Shown here: piece after piece, positions 12,980 through 54,045 of the stretch
Position numbering within the stretch: the first letter of the stretch is position 1
Layout of the letters: each line of letters begins with the position of its first letter
Assembly: GCA_964347635.1 (NCBI GenBank)
Contig: CAYFZI010000002.1
Span: 8,851 to 72,850 of the forward strand
Direction of reading: 5' to 3'
Length of the DNA stretch: 64,000 nt
Origin: an uncultured Dehalococcoidia bacterium
GTDB lineage: Bacteria > Chloroflexota > Dehalococcoidia > Bin125
Position numbers and translations under genes: made by a program
The notes under the pieces: generated by a model
Seen by the model: only the letters and a program-made list of their open reading frames with translations
Databases searched by the model: none
Told to the model about the DNA's origin: nothing

Positions 12980-15622
12980 ATGGCCAAACGCGGTTCAAAG
13001 CGCCGTACGGCGCTTCCCGACCAGCTCGCGCTCTGGATGACGCAGCAGCGCACCCCATTGGCAGGGATCGCTGTGATCGCCGCCGCTTCCCTCTTCGCTG
13101 CCTGGGCGTCGCTGGCCGCTGCGCCGGCGGCGGGCGGGCGCGAAGCGCTGATCGCGGCGCTCGGCGGCGGCGTCTACCTGGCCGCGGCGGCGCCGGCTGC
13201 GTGCGGCGCAGCGCTGCTGCTGGGCATGCGGCGGCCCAAGCGGGTGCAGCGGCGGCAGCTGCGGCGCATCCTGGGCGCGGCCGCGCTGCTGCTGGCGGCG
13301 TGGGGGATCGCCGGCGCGTTTGGCCCCGCTCTGTCGTTGGGCGGCGTCTCGCTGGCTGAGCACTCGCTGGGCGGCGCTGTCGGAGCGGCATTCGCGAACG
13401 CGCGCGGCGCTGTGCTGATCGCGCTGCTGCTTCTGGGCGGCGGCGCGCTGCTCGCGCCGCCGCAGGCGCGCGCGCTGCTGGGCGGCGCGAAACGCGGGCT
13501 GCGTTGGTCGGTGCGGGCGTTGGCGGACCACGGCCCGGCCGCGGCGGCGGCGATCGGGCGGGCGATCTGGGCCGGGCTCAGCTGGTATGTGCGCCTGGTC
13601 TGGGGCGCGCTGCGGGAGATCGCGGGCGATCTGCGCGGCGCGGTTGAGCGGCGGCGGACGGCCGCGCAGGCGCCGCCGCCCCCGCCACCCGCGCAATGGA
13701 CGCTGCAGATACCCAATTCGCCGCCCCCTCCTCCGCTGGCGCAGGCGCCGCCGCCCAATCCCGCGCCGCCTGCACCGACGCCGCCCGCGCCGGCGGCGAA
13801 GCCGCCCAAGCGGACGCTCAAGCGCCAGGCCGCAGACGGCTGGCGGCTGCCGCCGTTGGACCTGCTCGATCCGGATCGGCCCGCGGTGTCGCAGGCCAGC
13901 GCCGATGAGAGCGCGCAGATCATTGTCGACACTTTGGCTTCGTTCGGAGTGGATGCGCGGGTCGCCGAAATCAACCGCGGCCCGAGCGTGACTCAGTTCG
14001 GGATCGAGCCGGGCTGGGAGATTAAGATGCGCCAGATCGCGCTGCGCAGCGCCGACGGCAAGGCGCTGCTCGACGGCGACGGACAACCGCAGACCCGCTC
14101 CGAAGAGGTGGCGCGCACGCGGGTGCGGGTCAACCGGATCACACGGCTGGCCAACGATCTGGCGCTCGCCCTCTCAGCCCCTTCGATTCGCGTCGAGGCG
14201 CCCGTTCCGGGGCGGCCCGTGATTGGCATCGAGGTGCCCAACGCCGAGTCCGGGATTGTCGCGCTGCGCGGGCTGCTCGAGTCGGATGAGTACCGCCGCG
14301 CGGTCGAGCGCGGCGGGCTGCCGATCGCGCTGGGCCGCGACGTGCGCGGGCGGCCGGTCGTCGCCGATTTGGCCAAGATGCCGCACGTGCTGATCGCCGG
14401 CGCGACCGGCTCCGGCAAGAGCGTCTGCATCAACACGATCATCACCTGCCTGCTGATGCACCAATCGCCGCTGCAGCTGCGTCTGGTGCTGGTCGATCCC
14501 AAGCGGGTCGAGCTGACCGGCTACGCCGGCGTCCCCCACCTGGCGCTCTCGCATGTGGTCACCGAGACCGACGAAGTCGTGCGCGTGTTGGGCATGGTGG
14601 TGGCCGAGATGGAGCGCCGCTATCGGCGCCTCGAAGCGTGCGGCGTGCGCAACATCGCGGCCTACAACGCGCGGCCGGATGTCGAGCAGCCGCTGCCCTA
14701 CTGGGTGGTGGTGCTCGATGAGCTGGCCGACATGATGATGGCCGCGCCGGTCGAGGTCGAGCAGCAGCTGGTACGCCTGGCGCAGCTGGCGCGCGCGACC
14801 GGTATTCACCTGGTGGTGGCGACGCAGCGCCCCTCCGTCGACGTCGTGACCGGGCTGATCAAGGCCAACTTCCCCACCCGCATCGCGTTCGCAACGACAT
14901 CCCAGACAGATGCGCGGGTGATCATGGATCGGGCCGGGGCAGAGAAGCTGCTGGGGCGCGGCGACATGCTGCTGATGAGCTCCGACAGCATCAAGCCGCG
15001 CCGCGTGCAGGGCGCGTTCGTATCCGACGACGAGATCGACCGAGTGATCGAGGCCTGGACGGCGCCCGCGCAGCCCGCAGCTCAGCGCTCGACTGTCGAA
15101 GATCTGATCGATGAGCTGCTGAACGACGCCGACGCTGCACCGCAGACGCGCGCAGCGATCCAGGCCGGCGCAGAGACCGACGCGCTGCGCAGCAAGCTGC
15201 GCACGGCGCTCGCAGCCGAGCCGCCGGACATCGCCGCCTCAGACGATCGCTCGGCCGCCCCCGAGGCAGCTGCGGCAGAGCGCCCGCCCCGCTTGCGGGA
15301 GCAGGATGCCGAAGTCCATCTGGATTCTCCGGCCGCACCCGCAAGCGGGATGGGGGAGGAGGATGCGGCGCCGCTGCGGCTCTCCTCTCCGGAGGCATCG
15401 GAGGCATCGAGTGATTCCCGCTTTGATGAGGCGGCGGCGCTGGCGTGCGAGCATCGGCGCGTCTCGGCTTCGCTGCTGCAGCGGCGCTTGCGGGTCGGCT
15501 TGCCCCGCGCCGAGCGCCTCATTGAGCAGCTCGAGCTGGCCGGCATCGTCGCGCCCGCTGAAGGCGGCAGCTCGCGTCGTGTGCTGCAGCGCGCCGAATC
15601 GGGCGTCCAGCCGCTCGACTAG
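12980..15622 (+). CDS. ftsK: DNA translocase FtsK/SpoIIIE
   Basis: N-terminal TM segments, a Pro/Ala-rich linker, a motor domain with GATGSGKS Walker A and VVVLDELADMM Walker B, and a C-terminal gamma (winged-helix) domain. ATG 12980 follows GAGGG; the track TTG start is at 12974. Confidence 0.9.
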   Translation: MAKRGSKRRTALPDQLALWMTQQRTPLAGIAVIAAASLFAAWASLAAAPAAGGREALIAALGGGVYLAAAAPAACGAALLLGMRRPKRVQRRQLRRILGAAALLLAAWGIAGAFGPALSLGGVSLAEHSLGGAVGAAFANARGAVLIALLLLGGGALLAPPQARALLGGAKRGLRWSVRALADHGPAAAAAIGRAIWAGLSWYVRLVWGALREIAGDLRGAVERRRTAAQAPPPPPPAQWTLQIPNSPPPPPLAQAPPPNPAPPAPTPPAPAAKPPKRTLKRQAADGWRLPPLDLLDPDRPAVSQASADESAQIIVDTLASFGVDARVAEINRGPSVTQFGIEPGWEIKMRQIALRSADGKALLDGDGQPQTRSEEVARTRVRVNRITRLANDLALALSAPSIRVEAPVPGRPVIGIEVPNAESGIVALRGLLESDEYRRAVERGGLPIALGRDVRGRPVVADLAKMPHVLIAGATGSGKSVCINTIITCLLMHQSPLQLRLVLVDPKRVELTGYAGVPHLALSHVVTETDEVVRVLGMVVAEMERRYRRLEACGVRNIAAYNARPDVEQPLPYWVVVLDELADMMMAAPVEVEQQLVRLAQLARATGIHLVVATQRPSVDVVTGLIKANFPTRIAFATTSQTDARVIMDRAGAEKLLGRGDMLLMSSDSIKPRRVQGAFVSDDEIDRVIEAWTAPAQPAAQRSTVEDLIDELLNDADAAPQTRAAIQAGAETDALRSKLRTALAAEPPDIAASDDRSAAPEAAAAERPPRLREQDAEVHLDSPAAPASGMGEEDAAPLRLSSPEASEASSDSRFDEAAALACEHRRVSASLLQRRLRVGLPRAERLIEQLELAGIVAPAEGGSSRRVLQRAESGVQPLD

Positions 15623-15671
15623 GGCCTATGGGGCACGTTCGGCGGATTGCTCTGGGGCGTCTCTCGGGCGC

Positions 15672-15700
15672 GCCAAGCGCGGCAGCGCTCCGCGCTTGGC
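15672..15700. terminator. Perfect 11-bp inverted repeat (gccaagcgcgg-cagcgct-ccgcgcttggc) between convergent ftsK and tatC
   Basis: Read directly: stem arms at 15672-15682 and 15690-15700 with a 7-nt loop. It is followed by a T-containing stretch (tagttggctaggtttgg). Confidence 0.4.
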
Positions 15701-15751
15701 TAGTTGGCTAGGTTTGGCTCAGCGGGTGCGCGGGCGGCGCTTCGGTCTTCG

Positions 15752-16594
15752 TCACTGCTCTGCTGCGGATTCGGCTTGTTCGGCATCGGCGGCGGGGATG
15801 ATCGCGTGCGGCTCGACAATCCGCACGAGCGCGACGCCGAGGATGTACAGCCCCAGCGTCGGCACGGCGACCACCGTTTGCGTGACGGGGTCGATCGAGG
15901 GCGTGATCAGCGCTGCGAGCAGGAATGCGCCGATGATCGCCCAGCGCCACATACCGAGCAGCCGTTTCGATGTGACCAGGCCGAACGCCCCCAGACCCAT
16001 CAGGAAGAGCGGCATTTCGAAGATGATCCCGGTCCAGAAGACGAAGCGGGTCAGCATGTCGACGTAGTTGTTGATCCGCACCTGCGGCTCGGCGATCTTG
16101 TCGCCGAAGTTGAGCAGGAAGTCGAGCGCGGGCGGCCAGCCGATGTAGAAGGCGAAGGCGCCCCCGCAGGCGAAGGCGATCGTGGCGACGAAGACGATTG
16201 GCAGAATCCAGCGCCGCTCGGTGCGCGTCAGCCCGGGGTGGATGAAGGCGTAGGCCTGGTAGACGAGCACCGGCATCGCGCCGGCGACCCCCAGCATCAG
16301 GCTGATCTTGATGTACGCGCCGATGTAGCCGAGCAGCTCGGTGTAGATCGGCCGAAAGTCGGGCAGCGCTGCGCGTCCGGGCTCGAGCAGGTAATCGAGG
16401 ATCGATTCGGCGAACACGAGCGTGACGACCGTGGTCAGCACCACGCTCAGCGTGGCGATCGTGAGCCGCTGGCGGATTTCGCTGAGATGCTCGCCGAGTG
16501 TCAGCTCGCGATCGCCGCTGCTCTCGGGCTCCTCGGCCAGCTCCAGATCGAGCGGCGTTTCCTCGGGCGGCTGGGCGGCCGGCTGCGATGCCAT
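15752..16594 (-). CDS. tatC: Twin-arginine translocase subunit TatC
   Basis: Six-TM protein with TatC motifs (LSEIRQRL..., AYIKISL, PGLT..ER, IFEMPL). Confidence 0.9.
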   Translation of the reverse strand: MASQPAAQPPEETPLDLELAEEPESSGDRELTLGEHLSEIRQRLTIATLSVVLTTVVTLVFAESILDYLLEPGRAALPDFRPIYTELLGYIGAYIKISLMLGVAGAMPVLVYQAYAFIHPGLTRTERRWILPIVFVATIAFACGGAFAFYIGWPPALDFLLNFGDKIAEPQVRINNYVDMLTRFVFWTGIIFEMPLFLMGLGAFGLVTSKRLLGMWRWAIIGAFLLAALITPSIDPVTQTVVAVPTLGLYILGVALVRIVEPHAIIPAADAEQAESAAEQ

Positions 16595-16614
16595 GCGTCA
16601 GTCTGTCCGCGCCG

Positions 16615-17142
16615 CTACGCGCCGCCGCGGCGGCGGTTCAGCGAAATCACGTTCGAGGGCCGCGCCGGCGCTTCGGCGGCGCGCGCGCTGCGCCGCCGCA
16701 CGATCGGGCGCCGCCGCGCTTGGCGCGCCTCCGCCTGCGGCTCGGCTTCGACGGCCGCTGCGATCGGCGTCGGTGACGGCGGTGTCTGATTCGCCGCATT
16801 GGGGGACGCCGGGGCGCCGCTGCGCGCCGCCGACACCGCTTCCTCGGTCGCAATTTCAGCGTCGCGCGCGGCCGCCCGAATGTCCGCCTCGGCATCGGCC
16901 AGATCGCGGCGCAGCTCTTCGTCCGTTTCCTCCAGCTGGTGGCGAACTTCGATGTACTCCTCGCGCATCTCTTCGAAGTCGGTCAAATACTCGTCTCGGA
17001 AGTCGCGCGCATACTCGCGCAGCTCGCGAATCGCGCGCCCAAACTGCCCGGCGAACTCTGGCAGGCGGGCGGGCCCGAAGATCACCGCGGCCAACAGCAG
17101 CACGACCAGAATTTCTGGGATTCCAACGCCGAAGATATTCAT
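16615..17142 (-). CDS. tatA: Sec-independent translocase TatA/TatB-family protein with a long C-terminal tail
   Basis: MNIFGVGIPEILVVLLLAAVIFGPARLPE N-terminal TM plus amphipathic helix. The extended acidic/Pro-rich tail suggests a TatB-like role. Confidence 0.85.
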   Translation of the reverse strand: MNIFGVGIPEILVVLLLAAVIFGPARLPEFAGQFGRAIRELREYARDFRDEYLTDFEEMREEYIEVRHQLEETDEELRRDLADAEADIRAAARDAEIATEEAVSAARSGAPASPNAANQTPPSPTPIAAAVEAEPQAEARQARRRPIVRRRSARAAEAPARPSNVISLNRRRGGA

Positions 17143-17354
17143 GCGCGCCCCACCGCGGCCTCAGGCCGCCTGGCGCTGCACGCGCCCGCTCCAGCGTGCA
17201 TACGCGCCGGCTTCAGCGTATCGGATTTGCGCTCGGCTGCCGCATTCCCGCCGCGGCCGGGCGGGGGAAGGCCTCGCATTCCCCGCCCGCTCTGCTGGCG
17301 GCGGGAGCGGAGCGGTTGGGCCATTGCCTGCGTCGGCGGCGGTTCAGCGCTCCG

Positions 17355-17612
17355 CTAGTTTTCCGGCACGCCCTTCTCGAGCAGAAAATTGACCGCATCG
17401 CGGACGGTCGCGATCTCCTCCGCGTCCTCATCGGAGATCTCCAGGTCGGGCACCTCATCGCGGAATTCTTCTTCGAACGACATAATCAGCTCGACCAGAT
17501 CGAGCGAGTCCGCGCCGAGGTCGTCGATGAATGAGGCGTCCAGCGTGACCTCGTCGGCCTCGACGCTGAGCTGCTCCACGATGATGCCCTGAATCCGTTC
17601 GAACAGTGCCAC
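17355..17612 (-). CDS. acpP: Acyl carrier protein
   Basis: IVEQLSV...[20 protein letters not shown] with the phosphopantetheine-attachment Ser in DSLD. An internal GTG at 17612-17610 is preceded by GGAGG at 8 nt. The same frame stays open upstream (see the NusB-like feature and finding). Confidence 0.8.
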
Positions 17613-17888
17613 TGCAGAAGCCTCCTGCACCGGCCCTTCGAGCCGGGTTCGTCTGATTGTGCCCAACACCCCGCTAACCAAGCGCCGGCTGCCGTCGCTG
17701 CCGTAGCGCTTGGCCAGCTCCACCGCTTCGTGCACGGCGGTCGAGGCGCGTACCGCTTCAGTATTGAAGAGCAGTTCGTACAGCGCAATTCGGAGCACCG
17801 TCAGGTCGACCAGCGCCATCTGCGCGAGCGGGCGTTCCCGCGCCGTCTCGCGGATGATCGCGTCGAGCTCCCCGCAGCGGGCCGCCAC
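17613..17888 (-). CDS. NusB-family (antitermination factor-like) reading frame
   Basis: [22 protein letters not shown]...[25 protein letters not shown] matches the C-terminal helices of NusB. The only in-frame canonical start is GTG 17888. Upstream, NusB-N-terminus-like sequence ([10 protein letters not shown]...) continues in frame to a CTG that overlaps the fabD stop, with no ATG/GTG/TTG. There is no stop before acpP. Confidence 0.35.
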
Positions 17889-19752: not shown

Positions 19753-19889
19753 GGCGGGGCCAGCCTATCAGCGCCGTACTCCGCTGTCCGCTGCGTTATT
19801 GCTGCTGCGCTCGTTGGCACTCACCGGCATCGCATAGACTGCGCGCAGAGACTGAGTACAGCGCCAGCGCCCGGACGGAAGCGAGCGCC

Positions 19890-20585
19890 ATGGATCTCGA
19901 GGGGATGCAGGAGCTGCAGAAGATCGATCTTCTGCGCGACGACGCCAAGCGCGTGCTGCAGACCGTTGCCGAGCAGATCGCTGACCCGCCCTTTGTCGAA
20001 GCGTTGGACCGCGAGCTTAAGGCTCAGGTTGATCTCGCCGCCCGGGCGGCGCGCGAGGCGCGCGAGGCGCAGGCGACGGTCGAGGTTGCCCAGCGGCGCA
20101 TCCAGGCGACCGATGAGCGGCTCTACGGCGGCGCGGTGACCGACCACCGCACGCTGGAGGAGCTGCAGCGCGATCTCTACTCGCAGCGCCAGAATCTCGG
20201 CGGCCTGCAGGACGCCGCGCTCAGCGCGGGCCTGCGCTCGGAAGAAGCAGCGGATGCGGAACGCTGGTTGAGCGGGCTGCGTGCGCAATCGCTGGAGCTC
20301 TGGAACCGCCGCCAGGCCGAGCTGGCCGAGCAGCGCAGCAGCGCACAGGTCCGAGTCGACGATCTCTCCGCGCTGGTTGCGCAGCGCCGCATGGGGCTCA
20401 GCGGCGCCGACCTGCGCACCTACGATGAATACCGTCGCCGCCGGCCGCGCGTCGTCGCGGGCGTCGTGGGCGGGGTCTGCGAGGAGTGCCGGCTGACGCT
20501 GCCGACAATGATCATCACCCGGGCGCGCCGCGCCGATCGCCCGATCGAGTGTCCGTCGTGCGGATGTTTGGTGAGAGTGGCCTAA
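19890..20585 (+). CDS. DUF164/COG1579 coiled-coil protein with a C-terminal C4 zinc ribbon
   Basis: Long heptad-rich coiled coil. C-terminal CEECRLTLP...CPSCGCLV is typical of the family that neighbours RNase H in high-GC Gram-positives. The start is placed at ATG 19890; the longer track ORF overlaps divergent yceD. Confidence 0.7.
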   Translation: MDLEGMQELQKIDLLRDDAKRVLQTVAEQIADPPFVEALDRELKAQVDLAARAAREAREAQATVEVAQRRIQATDERLYGGAVTDHRTLEELQRDLYSQRQNLGGLQDAALSAGLRSEEAADAERWLSGLRAQSLELWNRRQAELAEQRSSAQVRVDDLSALVAQRRMGLSGADLRTYDEYRRRRPRVVAGVVGGVCEECRLTLPTMIITRARRADRPIECPSCGCLVRVA

Positions 20586-20588
20586 TTC

Positions 20589-22007
20589 GTGCGTGCGATT
20601 GGCTATCTCAGCCGGTGCGAAGCACAGACCGGCGAGAGAGCGCCCGCACTGGCTGAACAGAACGCGGCATTTCTCGATTTCTGTAACGAGCACGGCTATG
20701 AACCGGCGGCGACATTTCTCGATGCTTCCAGCGAGGCGCAGCGGCCCGGCTTCGCGCAGCTGCTCCAGCACCTCTCTGAGCAGCCGGCGGGCTTCACCGT
20801 GGTCGTAGTGCCCGCCTTTTGCCGGCTCGGAGGCGACGCCAATCAGAGCGCGCGCGCGCTGCTGCAGATGCGCGTGCGCGGGGCGCAGGTGCTCTCGCTG
20901 GCTGAGGGCCCGCTCGATGAATCGGCCATGATCGAGCTTTGGGAGCGCCAGCAGCCGCGCGAGCGGGGCCGCCGGGTGCGCGACGCGATGCGCCGCCGCG
21001 CGGTCCGCGGGCAGGCTCTGGGCCGCCCGCCCTACGGTTACTGCGTCGGCCCCGAGGGCCGCTTTGAGGCGGTCGCCGAGGAGGCCGACGTGGTCAAATA
21101 CATCGTGCGGATGTATCTTGACGAGGGCCTCGGGATCCGCCGCATTGCCCAGCGGCTCAACGCCGAGGGCTACCGCACCCGCCGCAAGGGGAACTGGAGC
21201 ATGGTCACGATCCGTGATCTGCTGCGCAACCGCGTCTACATGGGCACCTACCAGCGCTTCGGCGTCAGCGTGCCCAACAACCATGAGGCGTTGATCACGC
21301 GGACAGAGTTCAACGCAGTGCAGGAGCGGATGGCCGCGCGGCGCACGGCGCCGGGCGCCTCGCAGGGCGGGCGCTTTCTGCTTTCCGGCCTGCTCTGGTG
21401 CGGGGAAAGCGGCAGCCGCATGGTCGGCGTGACGCGCCGCCAGCGCTGGCAGCGTCGCGGCGGCGAGACCTCCAGCGGCGTCTACCGCTATTACCAGAGC
21501 GGGGCGCGCACCAACCAGTCGGTCGGCGGTTACCACACGCGCCGCGCCGATGAGCTCGAACAGGAGGTGTTGGCGCATCTGCGCGGCGAGCACAGCCGCG
21601 AGCCGCTCCCGGCCCTGGCGCTGGCCGGGGACGCCAACGCGGTCGTCGCCGAGGCGACCGCCGCCCTCTCGCGGGCGAAATCGCGGCTGCGCGCGCTCGA
21701 TCGCCGCCTCGGCCAGGCGCTCGACGCCGTCAGCGTCGGCGGCGGCTCGATGCAGGGCTTGCGGGACACAGCGGCGGTGGTCGTTGAGGAGTATGAGCGC
21801 GCCGAAGCGGATGTCGAGCGGCTGCACGGCCGCCTCGCGGCGCACACCTCCGACGCTCAACGCCGGCGCCGCCGCGATCAGCTGCTCGCCCAGGTGCGGG
21901 AGGGCTGGGACGCGCTCAGCTTTGAGGCGCAGCGCGCGCTGCTCGCCGACCTGGTCGAGCGGGTGATCGTCCACGACCACGGCGTCCAGACCATCCTGCG
22001 CGCCTGA
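20589..22007 (+). CDS. Large serine recombinase family protein (resolvase-like N-terminus, Recombinase domain, coiled-coil C-terminus); catalytic motif atypical
   Basis: RPGFAQLL, VVVPAFCRLGGD (DRLxR-like) and the Recombinase domain (PPYGY...VVKYIVRMYLDEGLGIRRIAQRLNAEGYRTRRKGNWSMVTIRDLLRNRVYMG) are present. The N-terminus reads GYLSRCEAQ instead of the canonical Y-x-R-V-S-T-x-E-Q. GTG start is 3 nt after the DUF164 stop. Confidence 0.7.
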   Translation: MRAIGYLSRCEAQTGERAPALAEQNAAFLDFCNEHGYEPAATFLDASSEAQRPGFAQLLQHLSEQPAGFTVVVVPAFCRLGGDANQSARALLQMRVRGAQVLSLAEGPLDESAMIELWERQQPRERGRRVRDAMRRRAVRGQALGRPPYGYCVGPEGRFEAVAEEADVVKYIVRMYLDEGLGIRRIAQRLNAEGYRTRRKGNWSMVTIRDLLRNRVYMGTYQRFGVSVPNNHEALITRTEFNAVQERMAARRTAPGASQGGRFLLSGLLWCGESGSRMVGVTRRQRWQRRGGETSSGVYRYYQSGARTNQSVGGYHTRRADELEQEVLAHLRGEHSREPLPALALAGDANAVVAEATAALSRAKSRLRALDRRLGQALDAVSVGGGSMQGLRDTAAVVVEEYERAEADVERLHGRLAAHTSDAQRRRRRDQLLAQVREGWDALSFEAQRALLADLVERVIVHDHGVQTILRA

Positions 22008-22015
22008 GCTGCATC

Positions 22016-22444
22016 GTGCGTGTGATCGCCTGGGCCGACGGAGCTTCGCGCGGCAATCCCGGCCCGGCCGCCTACGGATACGTGCTGACCGATGAAGCCG
22101 GCGTAGAGCTGGAGAGCGGGGGCGCCGCGATCGGCCGCGCGACCAACAACGTCGCCGAATACCGCGGCGCGATCGCGGCGCTGCAGGCAGCGGCGCGCTG
22201 CGGCGCTGCAGCGGTCGAGCTGCGCCTCGACAGCGAGCTCGTTGTGCGCCAGGTCGAGGGCCGTTACCGCGTCCGCCACCCGTCGCTCAAGCCGCTCTAC
22301 CAGCGTATGCGCGACCTGATCGCAGAGTGCCCCGAGTTCAGCGTCCGCCACGTGCCCCGCGCGCAAAACAGCCGCGCCGACGCGGAGGCCAACGCCGCCC
22401 TCGATGCACCCCCGCTGAGCAGCGGCTGCGCCCGGGTCTGTTGA
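22016..22444 (+). CDS. rnhA: Ribonuclease HI
   Basis: IAWADGASRGNPGPAAYGYVL...AEYRGAIAAL...RADAEANAAL carries the RNase H catalytic DEDD pattern. GTG is 8 nt after the recombinase stop. Confidence 0.85.
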   Translation: MRVIAWADGASRGNPGPAAYGYVLTDEAGVELESGGAAIGRATNNVAEYRGAIAALQAAARCGAAAVELRLDSELVVRQVEGRYRVRHPSLKPLYQRMRDLIAECPEFSVRHVPRAQNSRADAEANAALDAPPLSSGCARVC

Positions 22445-22560
22445 GTCTGCTCGCCTTCAGCCCAGCTCCCTTTTCCCCTCTCCCCTCGCTGGCGAAGTGC
22501 CGGGGGGGTCGCGCCGAATCTGCCGCAGGTGAACAAAGCGGGCAGGCCGCGTTAGAGTGG

Positions 22561-27049: not shown

Positions 27050-30000
27050 CCTGTCTCATCCAACGTCATCTCCCCCAGCGCCATCGGCAGCTCGACCTTG
27101 AGTGGCGGCGCCCCCATACCGCGAACGATCAGCACGCGCTCCGCGTGCTGCAGTTCGTACGGGCCGCCCCATGAATCGCGGGCGGCGACATAACGCCACC
27201 GCTTCACGCTTGCTGTGGGCACGCCGATTCCCATCACCGAGGGATCGATCGACAGCGCCAGCTCGCGGGCCGGCAGGCCGCTCTCGCCTTGAAACACGAT
27301 CGGCGTGACCCCGCGGCGGAGCGTGAGGCCGTAGGTCGGCATCTCGGCGATCGCGATCATGCTGGGCGCGCGGACCCGCAGCGCGATTCCACCGTCGATC
27401 TGCTCGACCTCCACCTGCCGCCAGGTTGCGCTGGCGAGGTCGAACACGATGAACGCCAGCGGTGCGCTCTGCGGCGCCAACGGCAGGCGCACGCTGAGAT
27501 CGGCCGATCCATCGAGCGGTGTGCCGCGCTCGTCGGTGAGCGCGATTCGCCAGGCGCTGAGGATTGATGCCTGCTCCCCATCCGGATCCCATGTCAGCGC
27601 TGCAATGTCGTCGAAGATTTCATCGAGCAGCACGCGGCGTGTGAGCGGCCGCACCTCGATCTGCACCGCGGCGGCGCCCGCCGGCGGGGCGGCGGCGTGC
27701 AGCGTGAAGGCTGGGAGGCCGTCGTCGTGCTGCGCTGCAAACCCCTCGTGCGCATCCCCCCGGCCCGTCTGGACCGTCGCGTAGACGCCGCCGCGCCAGG
27801 CGAACTCATGCACCAGCTCGCGCCGCAGCGCGATTGCCATGGGTTGGGTGGTGTCGCCGCGGGCGCGGATATGCGCGGCCGCAATGCGGCCCTCGGGGGT
27901 GGGCGCGACGAGCATTTCGTTTGCGGCCGGCAGCGTGAATCCTGCAAGGCGCCGACCAGTTGCGTCGTGCACGCCGTTGGGCAGGCGCGGTTCATAGCTC
28001 AATGTGACCGCGTCGCGCGCCGTGACTGGGGTTTGCAGCGTCAGCGTTGCGCGCGTCTCACGCCACTCCACGCCGATCACGCGGATCGTGCGCCGCCCTG
28101 CTGTCACTGTGAACCATTCGGGCTCCGCGCCGCCGGCCGCCACGGCTTCGCTGAACTGCACTTCGAGTATGGTCTCGGCCGCGCTCGCCGCTACGGCGAC
28201 GGGGCCGAGCTGAGTGTAGTTGGGGGCCAAGACGGAGGCGGCGTCGACGCGGTGGCCGGCCGCGCCGCGCAACGCTCCGGTCTCGCGGTGGCGGGCGAGG
28301 TAGGCAACGATCACGTCGCTGCTTTCGGGCAGCCCCGGCTCTTCGAGCAGCAGGGTCACGCTGCCCGCGCGCGAGACGAATACCGCTTCGACAGCGGCGC
28401 TCGATTCGGCGGCGGCGATCCACCACGAGCGCGGCGGTACGTGATCGGGATCGAGCGGGCGATCGAAATGGATCAGTACGACTCGGCCGACGGCGACAGC
28501 GCGCTCCATGATCGGAGCGCGGCCGCGGTCTGTTAGGGCGATCGTGAACGCTGCTGTCGAGTTCCCGTGACGGTCGAGGATGGGGCGGGAGCTGTTTGGG
28601 GAATAGGTCAGACGGATTCTGCTGTCGGGCCCGGCGCCTGGTTCGTGCAGCCGCAGGCGCAGCTCAGTGCCGCTGATGCCCAACACTTCGAGTACCGCAG
28701 GCGCGCGGCTGAGCGTAAAGTCGGCGGCCGCCGGCAGGCGGCTCGGGTCCAGCGGTTCATCGAACGTTATTACTAGCTCCGTAAGCCAAGACTCCGCGCT
28801 GACCGCCTGCGGCGGCCGCGCCGTTGTGTTTTCTGCTGCAACCGCGAAGGCTTCGACAACATTGCCGGTTGGGTCCGCGAGCCCGCCTGCGTCCTTTGGC
28901 GCATACTCCACGCGAACTGCAGAGCCCTCAAGCAGGCTGCGTACGAGCGTCAGCACCAACTCTGCACCCGATATCTGGGCGCCGATCACTGCGGCGCGGC
29001 CCTGTCTGTCGCTAACCGTGAAGTGCTCAAAATCTGCTGCGCCGGACAATTCCTGGTCGAATCTCAGTGTGATAGTGCTTCGATCGGCCGCGGCCGCCGT
29101 GATCTGCGGCGCGGTATCGGTCGTGTTCTGTACATCGATCTCGAATGCGCGCACGGGCCGTCCTGCGGCGTCGAGCAGCGCAGCTTCTTCGGGCGGTTCA
29201 TATGCAGCACGCACAGCGGCGCCTTCAACGGCCGCCGCGGCCAACTCAAGCGCGACAGCCGCGCCCGCTGCCTCCGCTGATACCGTGTGCAACCGCTCCG
29301 CACCGGTCCAGACTGCGAACGCGTCCGCCGTCAGCGGTGCGTCGCTCAATAACGCATCGAACTCAATCTCCAGCGAGACGCCGTCAACCTGCGCTGAGAC
29401 GGGGGCGGCGGGCGTTGCATTGCTCACCTCGATCGGATCGAACGAGGCGGCCAGGTTCGCAGGCACGGATGTATCTCGAAGCGGCGAGATCGTCTGCATC
29501 TGATACTGCAGCTGTACCAGGTCGCTGACCGCAACACTCTGCAGCAGCTCAATCCGAACCGCGCGTTCCTCGACCTCTGAATCGCGGAACGGCCGCGCCG
29601 CTCCGTTCACCCACACCCGAAACGCGTTGAGCGGCTCGCCGAAGTCGTTGAGATACGGCGGCCCCGGCCCGGCCGCGAGCGGTTGGTCGAACAGCAGCGT
29701 GATGACGTCCTCCTCGACGGCTGCGCTTTTCATCACCGGCGCCGTATCGGTATGGTTCGCAACCGTAATTTCGAAACCGGCGACAGGCAGCTCTCCCTGA
29801 TCGGCGTCCAGCAGCCGGCCGGCTGCTTCGGGCGGCGCGTAGTGCAGCACGACCTGATCAAGCTCATGCGCGGTCGGCCCGCCGAGGTTCAGCGAAACCG
29901 TTGCGCCTGCGGTCGTGATTGACTCGATCTGCGCCTCGCTGCCGTCGAGCGTGAACCCTCCTGGAGCGGCCATTGCGGAAGGGCCGATCTGTACAGCCTC

Positions 30001-45456: not shown

Positions 45457-45533
45457 TGGCGCCCCTGGGAGGACTCGAACCTCCAGCCTGCGGATTAGAA
45501 GTCCGCTGCTCTGTCCGGTTGAGCTACAGGGGC
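45457..45533 (-). tRNA. tRNA-Arg (anticodon TCT), CCA encoded
   Basis: The reverse complement is GCCCCTGTAGCTCAACCGGACAGAGCAGCGGACTTCTAATCCGCAGGCTGGAGGTTCGAGTCCTCCCAGGGGCGCCA. It forms a cloverleaf with 7-bp acceptor stem, anticodon loop CTTCTAA and T-loop GGTTCGAGTCC. Confidence 0.85.
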
Positions 45534-53865: not shown

Positions 53866-54045
53866 CGCAGAATCAGAGTGGGGCGCACGACGGGGAACCC
53901 GGTGCGAATCCGGGGCTGTCGCGCAACGGTGATCCGCAGCTCGCTGCGGTCAGCCCGAATACCGTCGGGGCGCCCACGCCAGCACACCGACTTCGCGTCA
54001 GGGTCGGGGCGTCCCCAAACGGCCCATCGAGGCCGTTTTCGCTGC
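53866..54045 (+). promoter_or_regulatory. Cobalamin (AdoCbl) riboswitch with a terminator-like expression platform
   Basis: AGAATCAGAGTGGG...GGGAACCCGGTGCGAATCCGGGGCTGTCGCGCAACGGTGA matches the conserved cobalamin-riboswitch core (GGGAA..GGTG.AA.TCC...CTG.C.CGCAAC.GT). A B12-box-like GTCAGGGTCGGGG and a hairpin aacggcc-catcga-ggccgtttt (54019-54045) lie upstream of a btuF-like gene. Confidence 0.7.

Follow-up and report, generated by a model that had tools for sequence, protein, structure and literature searches.

A probably exapted, catalytically degenerate large serine recombinase homologue between the DUF164 and RNase H genes of Chloroflexota

Serine integrases have been studied almost exclusively as enzymes of mobile elements and as tools for genome engineering. 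Here we analyse the gene of a large-serine-recombinase (LSR) homologue in a stretch of 64,000 nucleotides from an uncultured Dehalococcoidia bacterium (Chloroflexota; assembly GCA_964347635.1, contig CAYFZI010000002.1, positions 8,851 to 72,850 of the forward strand), which is called the window throughout and is numbered from its first nucleotide. The gene is located between a gene of the DUF164/CT398 family and the gene for RNase HI, and its product is very probably a dead recombinase that has been kept by selection and inherited vertically. The family to which it belongs is large, old, widespread and, as far as we could find, hitherto undescribed, and very probably consists of complete but dead LSRs that are passed on vertically.

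The homologue shares its domain order, its fold, a GRPPYGY-type linker and a similar length with the large serine integrases of phages (SPbeta SprA/YokA, A118/LI, Bxb1 and PhiC31). Unlike these enzymes, however, the family described here lacks the nucleophilic serine and the equivalents of Arg8, Arg68 and Arg71, the window protein has only one of the four zinc ligands, and the gene is inherited vertically at a housekeeping locus that contains neither a mobile element nor att sites. A second group of described systems comprises LSRs that have been recruited by their hosts, i.e. XisF of the fdxN element, SpoIVCA and CcrA/B/C, in which the catalytic residues are intact and which cut out a defined element. 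Like these, the homologue is chromosomally encoded, and XisF is its best match among the NCBIfam models, followed by matches to CcrA/B/C. All of these matches are far below threshold (73 bits versus a cut-off of 375 bits for XisF), and, in contrast to the recruited enzymes, neither the chemistry nor an element is present here. In a 2022 review of the recruitment of mobile elements, only active serine recombinases are among the recruited ones (PMC8987985).

One inactivated serine recombinase was found in the literature, the poxvirus protein F16/OPG61, which has the serine-recombinase fold but lacks the DRLxR box and other catalytic residues, and the function of which is unknown, while a deep branch of the family still appears to be active (bioRxiv 10.1101/2022.11.22.517515). 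F16/OPG61 and the bacterial homologue have in common an inactivated serine-recombinase fold that is kept by selection; this likeness concerns the functional category only, and common descent is not expected. The viral protein matches the catalytic domain only, whereas the homologue comprises a bacterial LSR in its entirety, including every DNA-binding domain, and is encoded in a housekeeping operon, and the two inactivations are independent of one another. No published description of a dead bacterial serine recombinase, or of a DUF164-LSR-RNase H operon, was found in the literature. The gene neighbourhoods that have been described for DUF164/FlgZ homologues (CT398, Rv2229c) include NIF3, dnaG, rpoD and rnhA, and in Borrelia the RNase P RNA gene (PMC3372290). 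In contrast to the present locus, these neighbourhoods lack a recombinase homologue, and an LSR between DUF164 and rnhA/rnpB was seen only in Chloroflexota here.

The features of the homologue that carry the argument are given below, with their positions in the window and in the protein (aa, amino acids).

20589-22007, + strand: gene of the LSR homologue, catalytically degenerate, 472 aa, GTG start
20604-20618, + strand: degenerate nucleophile motif Y6-L-S8-R-C10 (in place of Y-x-R-x-S)
20820-20834, + strand: degenerate D-R-L-G-R box, C78-R79-L-G-G82
21024-21353, + strand: Recombinase domain (PF07508), aa 146-255, basic
21354-21593, + strand: zinc-ribbon domain fold (PF13408), aa 256-335, one of four Cys ligands
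21594-22004, + strand: coiled-coil motif and C-terminal beta strands, aa 336-472

The N-terminus of the protein is MRAIGYLSRCEAQ, i.e. M-R-A-I-G-Y-L-S-R-C-E-A-Q, and alignment of the family profile to the solved SPbeta integrase (LGYLRRS) puts S8 under the arginine and C10 in the column of the canonical nucleophilic serine, so that the original prediction, made from the sequence of the window, was right to place a cysteine there. A different start codon or frame that would restore the serine is excluded by an in-frame TAA two codons upstream (TAA TTC), which rules out an extension; the orthologues share the MRAIGY start. The catalytic columns were counted in 197 distinct orthologue sequences. 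The nucleophile column (position 10) is occupied by P in 42, R in 27, S in 22, C in 21, Y in 19, A in 15, T in 10 and L in 8 of them, and the Arg8 column by S in 138, R in 36 and T in 16. The equivalents of D67 (A64, E28, D20), R68 (H61, N47, R44) and R71 (H55, A34, P32, G24) are similarly variable, only L80 and G81 of the D-R-L-G-R box are conserved across the family, and the full catalytic set is present in none of the 197 orthologues. Nine members of the deep branch read YFRES but lack the D-R..R box, and one orthologue has DRLGR but a glutamate in the serine column. The residues of the catalytic region that are kept are Y6 (193/197), Q24, the equivalent of Q19 (196/197), and D45, the equivalent of D36 (190/197). 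As far as can be judged from the aligned sequences, the residues of phosphoryl transfer, namely the nucleophilic serine and the equivalents of Arg8, Arg68 and Arg71, have been lost throughout the family. In Tn3 resolvase, both cleavage and recombination drop sharply when Y6, R8, S10, D36, R68 or R71 is mutated, while no tested mutation strongly inhibited DNA binding (PMC2794168).

The original prediction had offered an unusual chemistry with a cysteine nucleophile and a programmed DNA rearrangement as possible roles. An enzyme that is still active and performs such a rearrangement with Cys10 or Ser/Thr8 as a non-canonical nucleophile has to be weighed against the loss of catalysis. Within the sub-clade of the window (58-82% identity) the motif YLSRC, including R9 and C10, and an arginine at the R68 column are fairly conserved, and position 8 is Ser or Thr in 154 of the 197 members. 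However, position 10 varies between P, R, S, C, Y and A across the family, and C10 therefore represents the state of an unconstrained column in one sub-clade rather than an alternative nucleophile. Furthermore, the deep clade has Arg at position 8, the R8, D67, R68 and R71 columns are as little conserved as the nucleophile column, the window protein has no equivalent of R71, and no inverted or direct repeats that could serve as substrates were found nearby. A gamma-delta resolvase in which Ser10 was changed to Cys is reportedly inactive. An active enzyme thus appears very improbable, and a programmed rearrangement would need a chemistry that is not supported.

The homologue keeps the whole architecture of an LSR, i.e. 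a resolvase-fold N-domain, the alpha-E helix, a basic recombinase domain, a zinc-ribbon fold and a coiled coil. The matches to Recombinase (PF07508; 82.1 bits, aa 164-250), Zn_ribbon_recom (PF13408; 38.9 bits) and Resolvase (PF00239; 37.6 bits) are above the Pfam thresholds; the Resolvase match (threshold 23.3 bits) spans profile positions 15-143 only, with the catalytic N-terminus outside the matched part of the hidden Markov model. The AlphaFold2 (AF2) model (pLDDT 85.8) contains every LSR element, including the beta-alpha-beta core of the N-domain (strands 2-8, 38-45, 70-74 and 100-103; helices 21-35, 53-64 and 84-96), the strands of the zinc-ribbon segment (269-304) and C-terminal helices (349-382, 388-418, 422-442, 445-455) that are followed by two strands (456-461, 466-470). 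The best Foldseek matches in the PDB are the full-length SPbeta, Bxb1, PhiC31 and A118 integrases, the N-domain is matched also to the catalytic domains of resolvase and TP901-1, and the C-terminal region aligns with the coiled-coil region of the A118 integrase. The Recombinase domain has a net charge of +7 in the window protein (family median +6), and 44 of its 110 columns are at least 90% conserved, a degree of conservation that is shared by the zinc-ribbon domain and exceeds that of the other parts. The zinc-ribbon domain has a charge of +5, and both domains carry many invariant arginines, which speaks for nucleic-acid binding. As had been predicted, C271 is the only cysteine within aa 256-335 of the window protein. 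All four zinc-ribbon cysteines are kept in the branch of 45-49% identity and in a few closer members; this branch also retains Arg8, while the branch of the window has lost both, and the decay of the catalytic residues and the cysteine ligands looks stepwise in this comparison.

The loss of catalytic residues and zinc ligands would also be expected if the gene were only the functionless relic of a mobile element that has decayed. However, the homologue is under strong purifying selection. The Nei-Gojobori dN/dS ratio is 0.118 (217 orthologue pairs of more than 80% identity), matching the value of 0.123 for the neighbouring DUF164 gene, and by domain it amounts to 0.121 for the N-domain, 0.106 for the recombinase domain, 0.122 for the coiled coil and, as the lowest value, 0.049 for the zinc-ribbon domain. 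In addition, 119 of the 472 columns are at least 90% conserved in the family, and a scan of one genome per species revealed relatives with intact, full-length open reading frames (ORFs) in at least 403 species-level genomes. A mere remnant is hardly credible in view of these values, and the selection data in practice already refute it.

A word-indexed search retrieved 616 homologues, the full-length orthologues among which span identities from 99% to 46% and, where named, all stem from metagenome-assembled genomes (MAGs) of Chloroflexi/Chloroflexota/Dehalococcoidia. When 1.84 billion cluster representatives were searched with the profile, 1300 matches had E <=1e-30. Among the representatives listed, 109 have at least 400 residues, and about 100 of these (686 down to about 190 bits) lack Y-x-R-x-S; canonical N-termini (MRAIGYIRVSTEEQ and similar) were first seen at about 214 bits among the matches listed. 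The family includes roughly 100 full-length representatives of clusters formed at 50% identity. Its members are labelled 'recombinase family protein' or 'DNA invertase Pin-like' in the databases, and these labels would wrongly suggest that the respective loci of Chloroflexota genomes are mobile or invertible.

The gene context also points away from mobility. The genes and the putative promoter around the homologue are the following.

19814-19853, + strand: candidate sigma-70-type promoter of the operon, a motif common to the upstream alignments of two orthologue clades
19890-20585, + strand: DUF164/CT398 (CdsZ, FlgZ) family gene, coiled-coil hairpin and C4 zinc ribbon (CEEC...CPSC)
22016-22444, + strand: RNase HI gene (Rv2228c N-domain / archaeal type), 142 aa
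22566-22951, + strand: RNase P RNA gene rnpB, class A (Rfam RF00010, 278.7 bits)

Three nucleotides (20586-20588) separate the DUF164 gene from the gene of the homologue, and eight (22008-22015) separate the latter from the RNase HI gene; the tight layout with these gaps had been described correctly in the original prediction, down to coordinates and frames, and rnpB, which begins after a spacer of 121 nucleotides behind the RNase HI gene, was missing from its gene list. The DUF164 ORF is open from 19725, and the ATG at 19890 is the start chosen by the gene caller in a copy from the same species. Its zinc ribbon scores 28.5 bits with Pfam Zn_ribbon_9, 0.6 below the threshold of 29.1, in the window protein, in the translation of which the motifs CEEC and CPSC are visible; orthologues in the same position match CT398_CC and Zn_ribbon_9, and weakly NCBIfam CdsZ. 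The RNase HI is above threshold for Pfam RVT_3 (70.6 bits) and RNase_H (38.6 bits) and matches the NCBIfam RNase H/acid-phosphatase N-domain model with 152 bits, and its DEDD motifs ADGAS, NNVAEY, LDSELV and RADAEAN are present when the translation is read directly. In the window the DUF164 gene and the gene of the homologue share a frame, with only TAA TTC between them; in the related locus L001 (L-numbers label related loci) the frames are different, and the shared frame in the window is probably without meaning.

Conservation of the three-gene arrangement in related genomes was analysed for the 80 best-matching loci of the species-level scan, all of which are from Chloroflexota/Dehalococcoidia MAGs. 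The DUF164 gene is directly upstream of the homologue in 79 of them, RNase HI is downstream in 70, and rnpB is downstream on the same strand in 76 as well as in four distant members that were looked up. The divergent upstream flank with yceD, rpmF, fabD ... nusB, acpP and tatC is conserved, too. The pairwise identities of the homologue are correlated with the corresponding values for DUF164 (r 0.93) and for RNase HI (r 0.90), and thus the three proteins have diverged together. The GC content is flat across the region, without a dip over the gene of the homologue, and neither att-like flanking repeats nor cargo nor a composition anomaly were found at the locus. This co-divergence, the absence of a GC anomaly and of att-like repeats, and the conserved yceD-rpmF-fabD flank show that the gene is inherited vertically at one housekeeping locus and is not mobile. 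An 18-nucleotide repeat at 20587 and 22014 (15 of 18 positions identical) was considered as att and rejected, as it spans the two start codons with their similar M-R-x-I codons; it is specific for the window, the relatives having a mean of 9.3 of 18 identical positions and none of 52 loci having 15 or more. The proposal of a fixed operon member rather than a recent insertion is therefore supported by gene order, purifying selection, co-divergence and the lack of att-like repeats alike; only its setting among high-GC Gram-positive-like genomes has to be replaced by the lineage Chloroflexota/Dehalococcoidia. Extra sequence is present between the homologue and RNase HI in a few loci, about 0.8 kb in L009, L013, L023 and L045 and about 1.75 kb in L029.

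Nine of the ten loci without RNase HI carry a gene for RNase HIII in the same slot, as do two further contigs of the clade (deep branch; L057, L062, L063, L067, L068, L071, L074, L075, L078, L081 and L082). The encoded protein has 316 aa and passes the NCBIfam equivalog TIGR00716 (197.6 versus 161.2 bits), and RNase HIII is considered to correspond to RNase HI in function. The exchange is a non-orthologous replacement at a fixed position, and thus the gene combination would be under selection and not merely inherited; among the data presented here it is the best evidence that suggests such a selection.

The explanation that we favour, and that as a whole is probable rather than assured, is that a catalytically dead LSR has been exapted as a nucleic-acid-binding adaptor that acts together with its operon partners. 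An ancestral neighbourhood of DUF164, rnhA and rnpB would be older than the recombinase homologue, judging from the literature on other phyla. In an ancestor of the lineage, the integrase gene of a phage-like element would have settled permanently between the gene for DUF164/CT398 and those for RNase H and RNase P RNA, and the encoded protein would have lost the chemistry, so that it no longer cuts or rejoins DNA. The DNA-binding and oligomerising parts that were retained would serve as an adaptor, in line with the proposals of a domesticated or repurposed recombinase and of a DNA-binding scaffold, both of which fit the data. Proteins of the CT398 family are predicted to bind the shelf and the jaw of the beta-prime subunit of RNA polymerase (RNAP), with the coiled coil reaching the sigma-binding region (bioRxiv 10.64898/2026.07.15.738315). 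The adaptor might work with the DUF164 protein and with the RNase H that degrades the RNA in RNA/DNA hybrids, for example by positioning hybrid removal on transcribed DNA, and the process could plausibly be the transcription-associated handling of RNA/DNA hybrids. This specific mechanism of the adaptor is put forward as tentative. Still more speculative is a version in which the dead LSR is a standing part of a transcription-associated RNA/DNA-hybrid module, bridges DNA via its N-domain and coiled coil, docks to DUF164/CT398, and directs RNase HI/HIII to R-loops or to a defined chromosomal site. If true, it would place the DUF164/CT398 family, which has long lacked an explanation, in a molecular context that can be tested.

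It should be noted that several points weigh against the adaptor. Its functional link to DUF164 and RNase H is drawn from gene order, and the binding of RNAP by DUF164 is an AlphaFold3 prediction, published in a preprint for other phyla (bioRxiv 10.64898/2026.07.15.738315). The distant dead members L085 and L089 have the order DUF164-LSR-rnpB without an adjacent RNase H gene, while in L087 and L090, which have neither DUF164 nor RNase H next to the LSR gene, yceD diverges from the latter and rnpB follows 3.7 or 0.9 kb downstream. Since distant members can lack RNase H or DUF164, the partnership is not obligatory, and the order could be partly historical. A conserved dyad or any other candidate binding site was not found near the locus. 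Lastly, the conserved YLSRC and the arginine in the R68 column might indicate residual or altered chemistry in the window's own sub-clade, which is unlikely.

The region upstream of DUF164 bears on the main rival explanation, in which the homologue is an integrase-derived sequence-specific transcription factor or architectural protein. Such a protein would control the operon that encodes it, rnpB or further genes, and would be mechanistically independent of RNase H and DUF164. The motif TTGGC[AT]-N18-[CT]A[GC]ACT is common to two orthologue clades, about 45-100 nucleotides 5' of the DUF164 ATG, and corresponds in the window to TTGGCA (19814-19819) and TAGACT (19835-19840), with a second -10-like hexamer GAGACT (19848-19853), so that the exact register is uncertain. 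A consensus promoter scan made no call at 19814-19853, and the consensus scan for promoters and terminators gave nothing useful on the + strand; one terminator-like match lies within the LSR gene (21353-21376) and is probably due to chance (4 found versus 1.1 expected). In the clade of about 52% identity (L012-L022 and relatives), about 100 nucleotides 5' of DUF164, the spacer ATCGCAGTnGTCGGG between TTGGCT and CATACACT is conserved beyond a normal spacer and could be the site of a regulator. A transcription factor would agree with this unusually conserved spacer, with the DNA-binding domains being the most conserved parts of the homologue, and with rnpB being its most constant neighbour, present also where DUF164 or RNase H is absent. 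However, the spacer is not conserved in the other clade that was aligned, a dyad-symmetric site was found neither at the promoter nor before rnpB, and the fact that RNase HIII can take the place of RNase HI in the same slot speaks for a selection that acts on the combination of genes. The upstream alignments of the two clades contained no conserved dyad of 40-50 bp but only the promoter-like motif and the region of the ribosome-binding site, and a scan of the two intergenic regions for inverted repeats revealed nothing convincing. This rival thus appears unlikely, albeit the likeliest of the alternatives.

The constancy of rnpB could alternatively mean that the homologue binds RNase P RNA and serves it as a chaperone or as an additional subunit. 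In addition to the 76 of 80 loci with a downstream rnpB, this would be in accord with L089, in which rnpB begins at the base right after the LSR stop codon. However, rnpB of the window appears to have a separate -10-like hexamer, TAGAGT (22553-22558), which was identified by eye as part of GTGAAC-N18-TAGAGT (22529-22558) directly 5' of the gene, and we know of no precedent for the binding of structured RNA by LSR domains. The adjacency of DUF164 and rnpB is also found in a phylum without the LSR homologue (PMC3372290), and an RNase P RNA binder is judged to be quite improbable.

The contexts of active relatives are of a different kind. Two canonical LSR relatives that were looked up adjoin cI-like repressors, and one of them has in addition an M78 peptidase, an amidase and an XhlA holin, i.e. 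a phage context. Among the members looked up, 'dead' coincides with a fixed position beside rnpB and 'alive' with a phage-like context. The phage-like surroundings of the nearest active relatives among those looked up would be compatible with an attB decoy or integration-immunity factor, i.e. a dead integrase that occupies the att site of related phage integrases, and dead serine-recombinase subunits can indeed still bind their sites (PMC2794168). However, no attB-like site was identified, the linkage to RNase H would be left unexplained, and the gene is fixed at a housekeeping locus with a dN/dS of 0.12 over a deep divergence. Defence genes, on the other hand, usually turn over fast. A decoy function is thus regarded as improbable in equal measure to RNase P RNA binding. 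Under the favoured reading of a dead LSR that has become an adaptor, the family reveals which LSR parts remain useful once catalysis is gone, and it links DUF164/CT398, RNase HI/HIII and rnpB, housekeeping players with a shared neighbourhood that has never been explained.

Several further observations were made in the window and in related loci. An ORF of 177 aa (17355-17888, - strand) fuses the C-terminal half of NusB (profile positions 60-132) to an acyl carrier protein domain, whereas in the relatives L081 and L090 nusB and acpP are separate and fabG is located between fabD and nusB; the ORF could be a true fusion or truncation or an assembly frameshift. A tRNA gene is present at 45460-45533 (- strand), and a cobalamin riboswitch at 53893-53988 (+ strand; 35.5 bits, partial model 46-168). 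In L083, which is from the same species as the window, the gene call at 14475-17419 (- strand) belongs to a giant protein that has Big_5/SWM-repeat domains and a length of about 3077 aa, and this gene maps to about position 27060 of the window onward, a few kb 3' of the locus.

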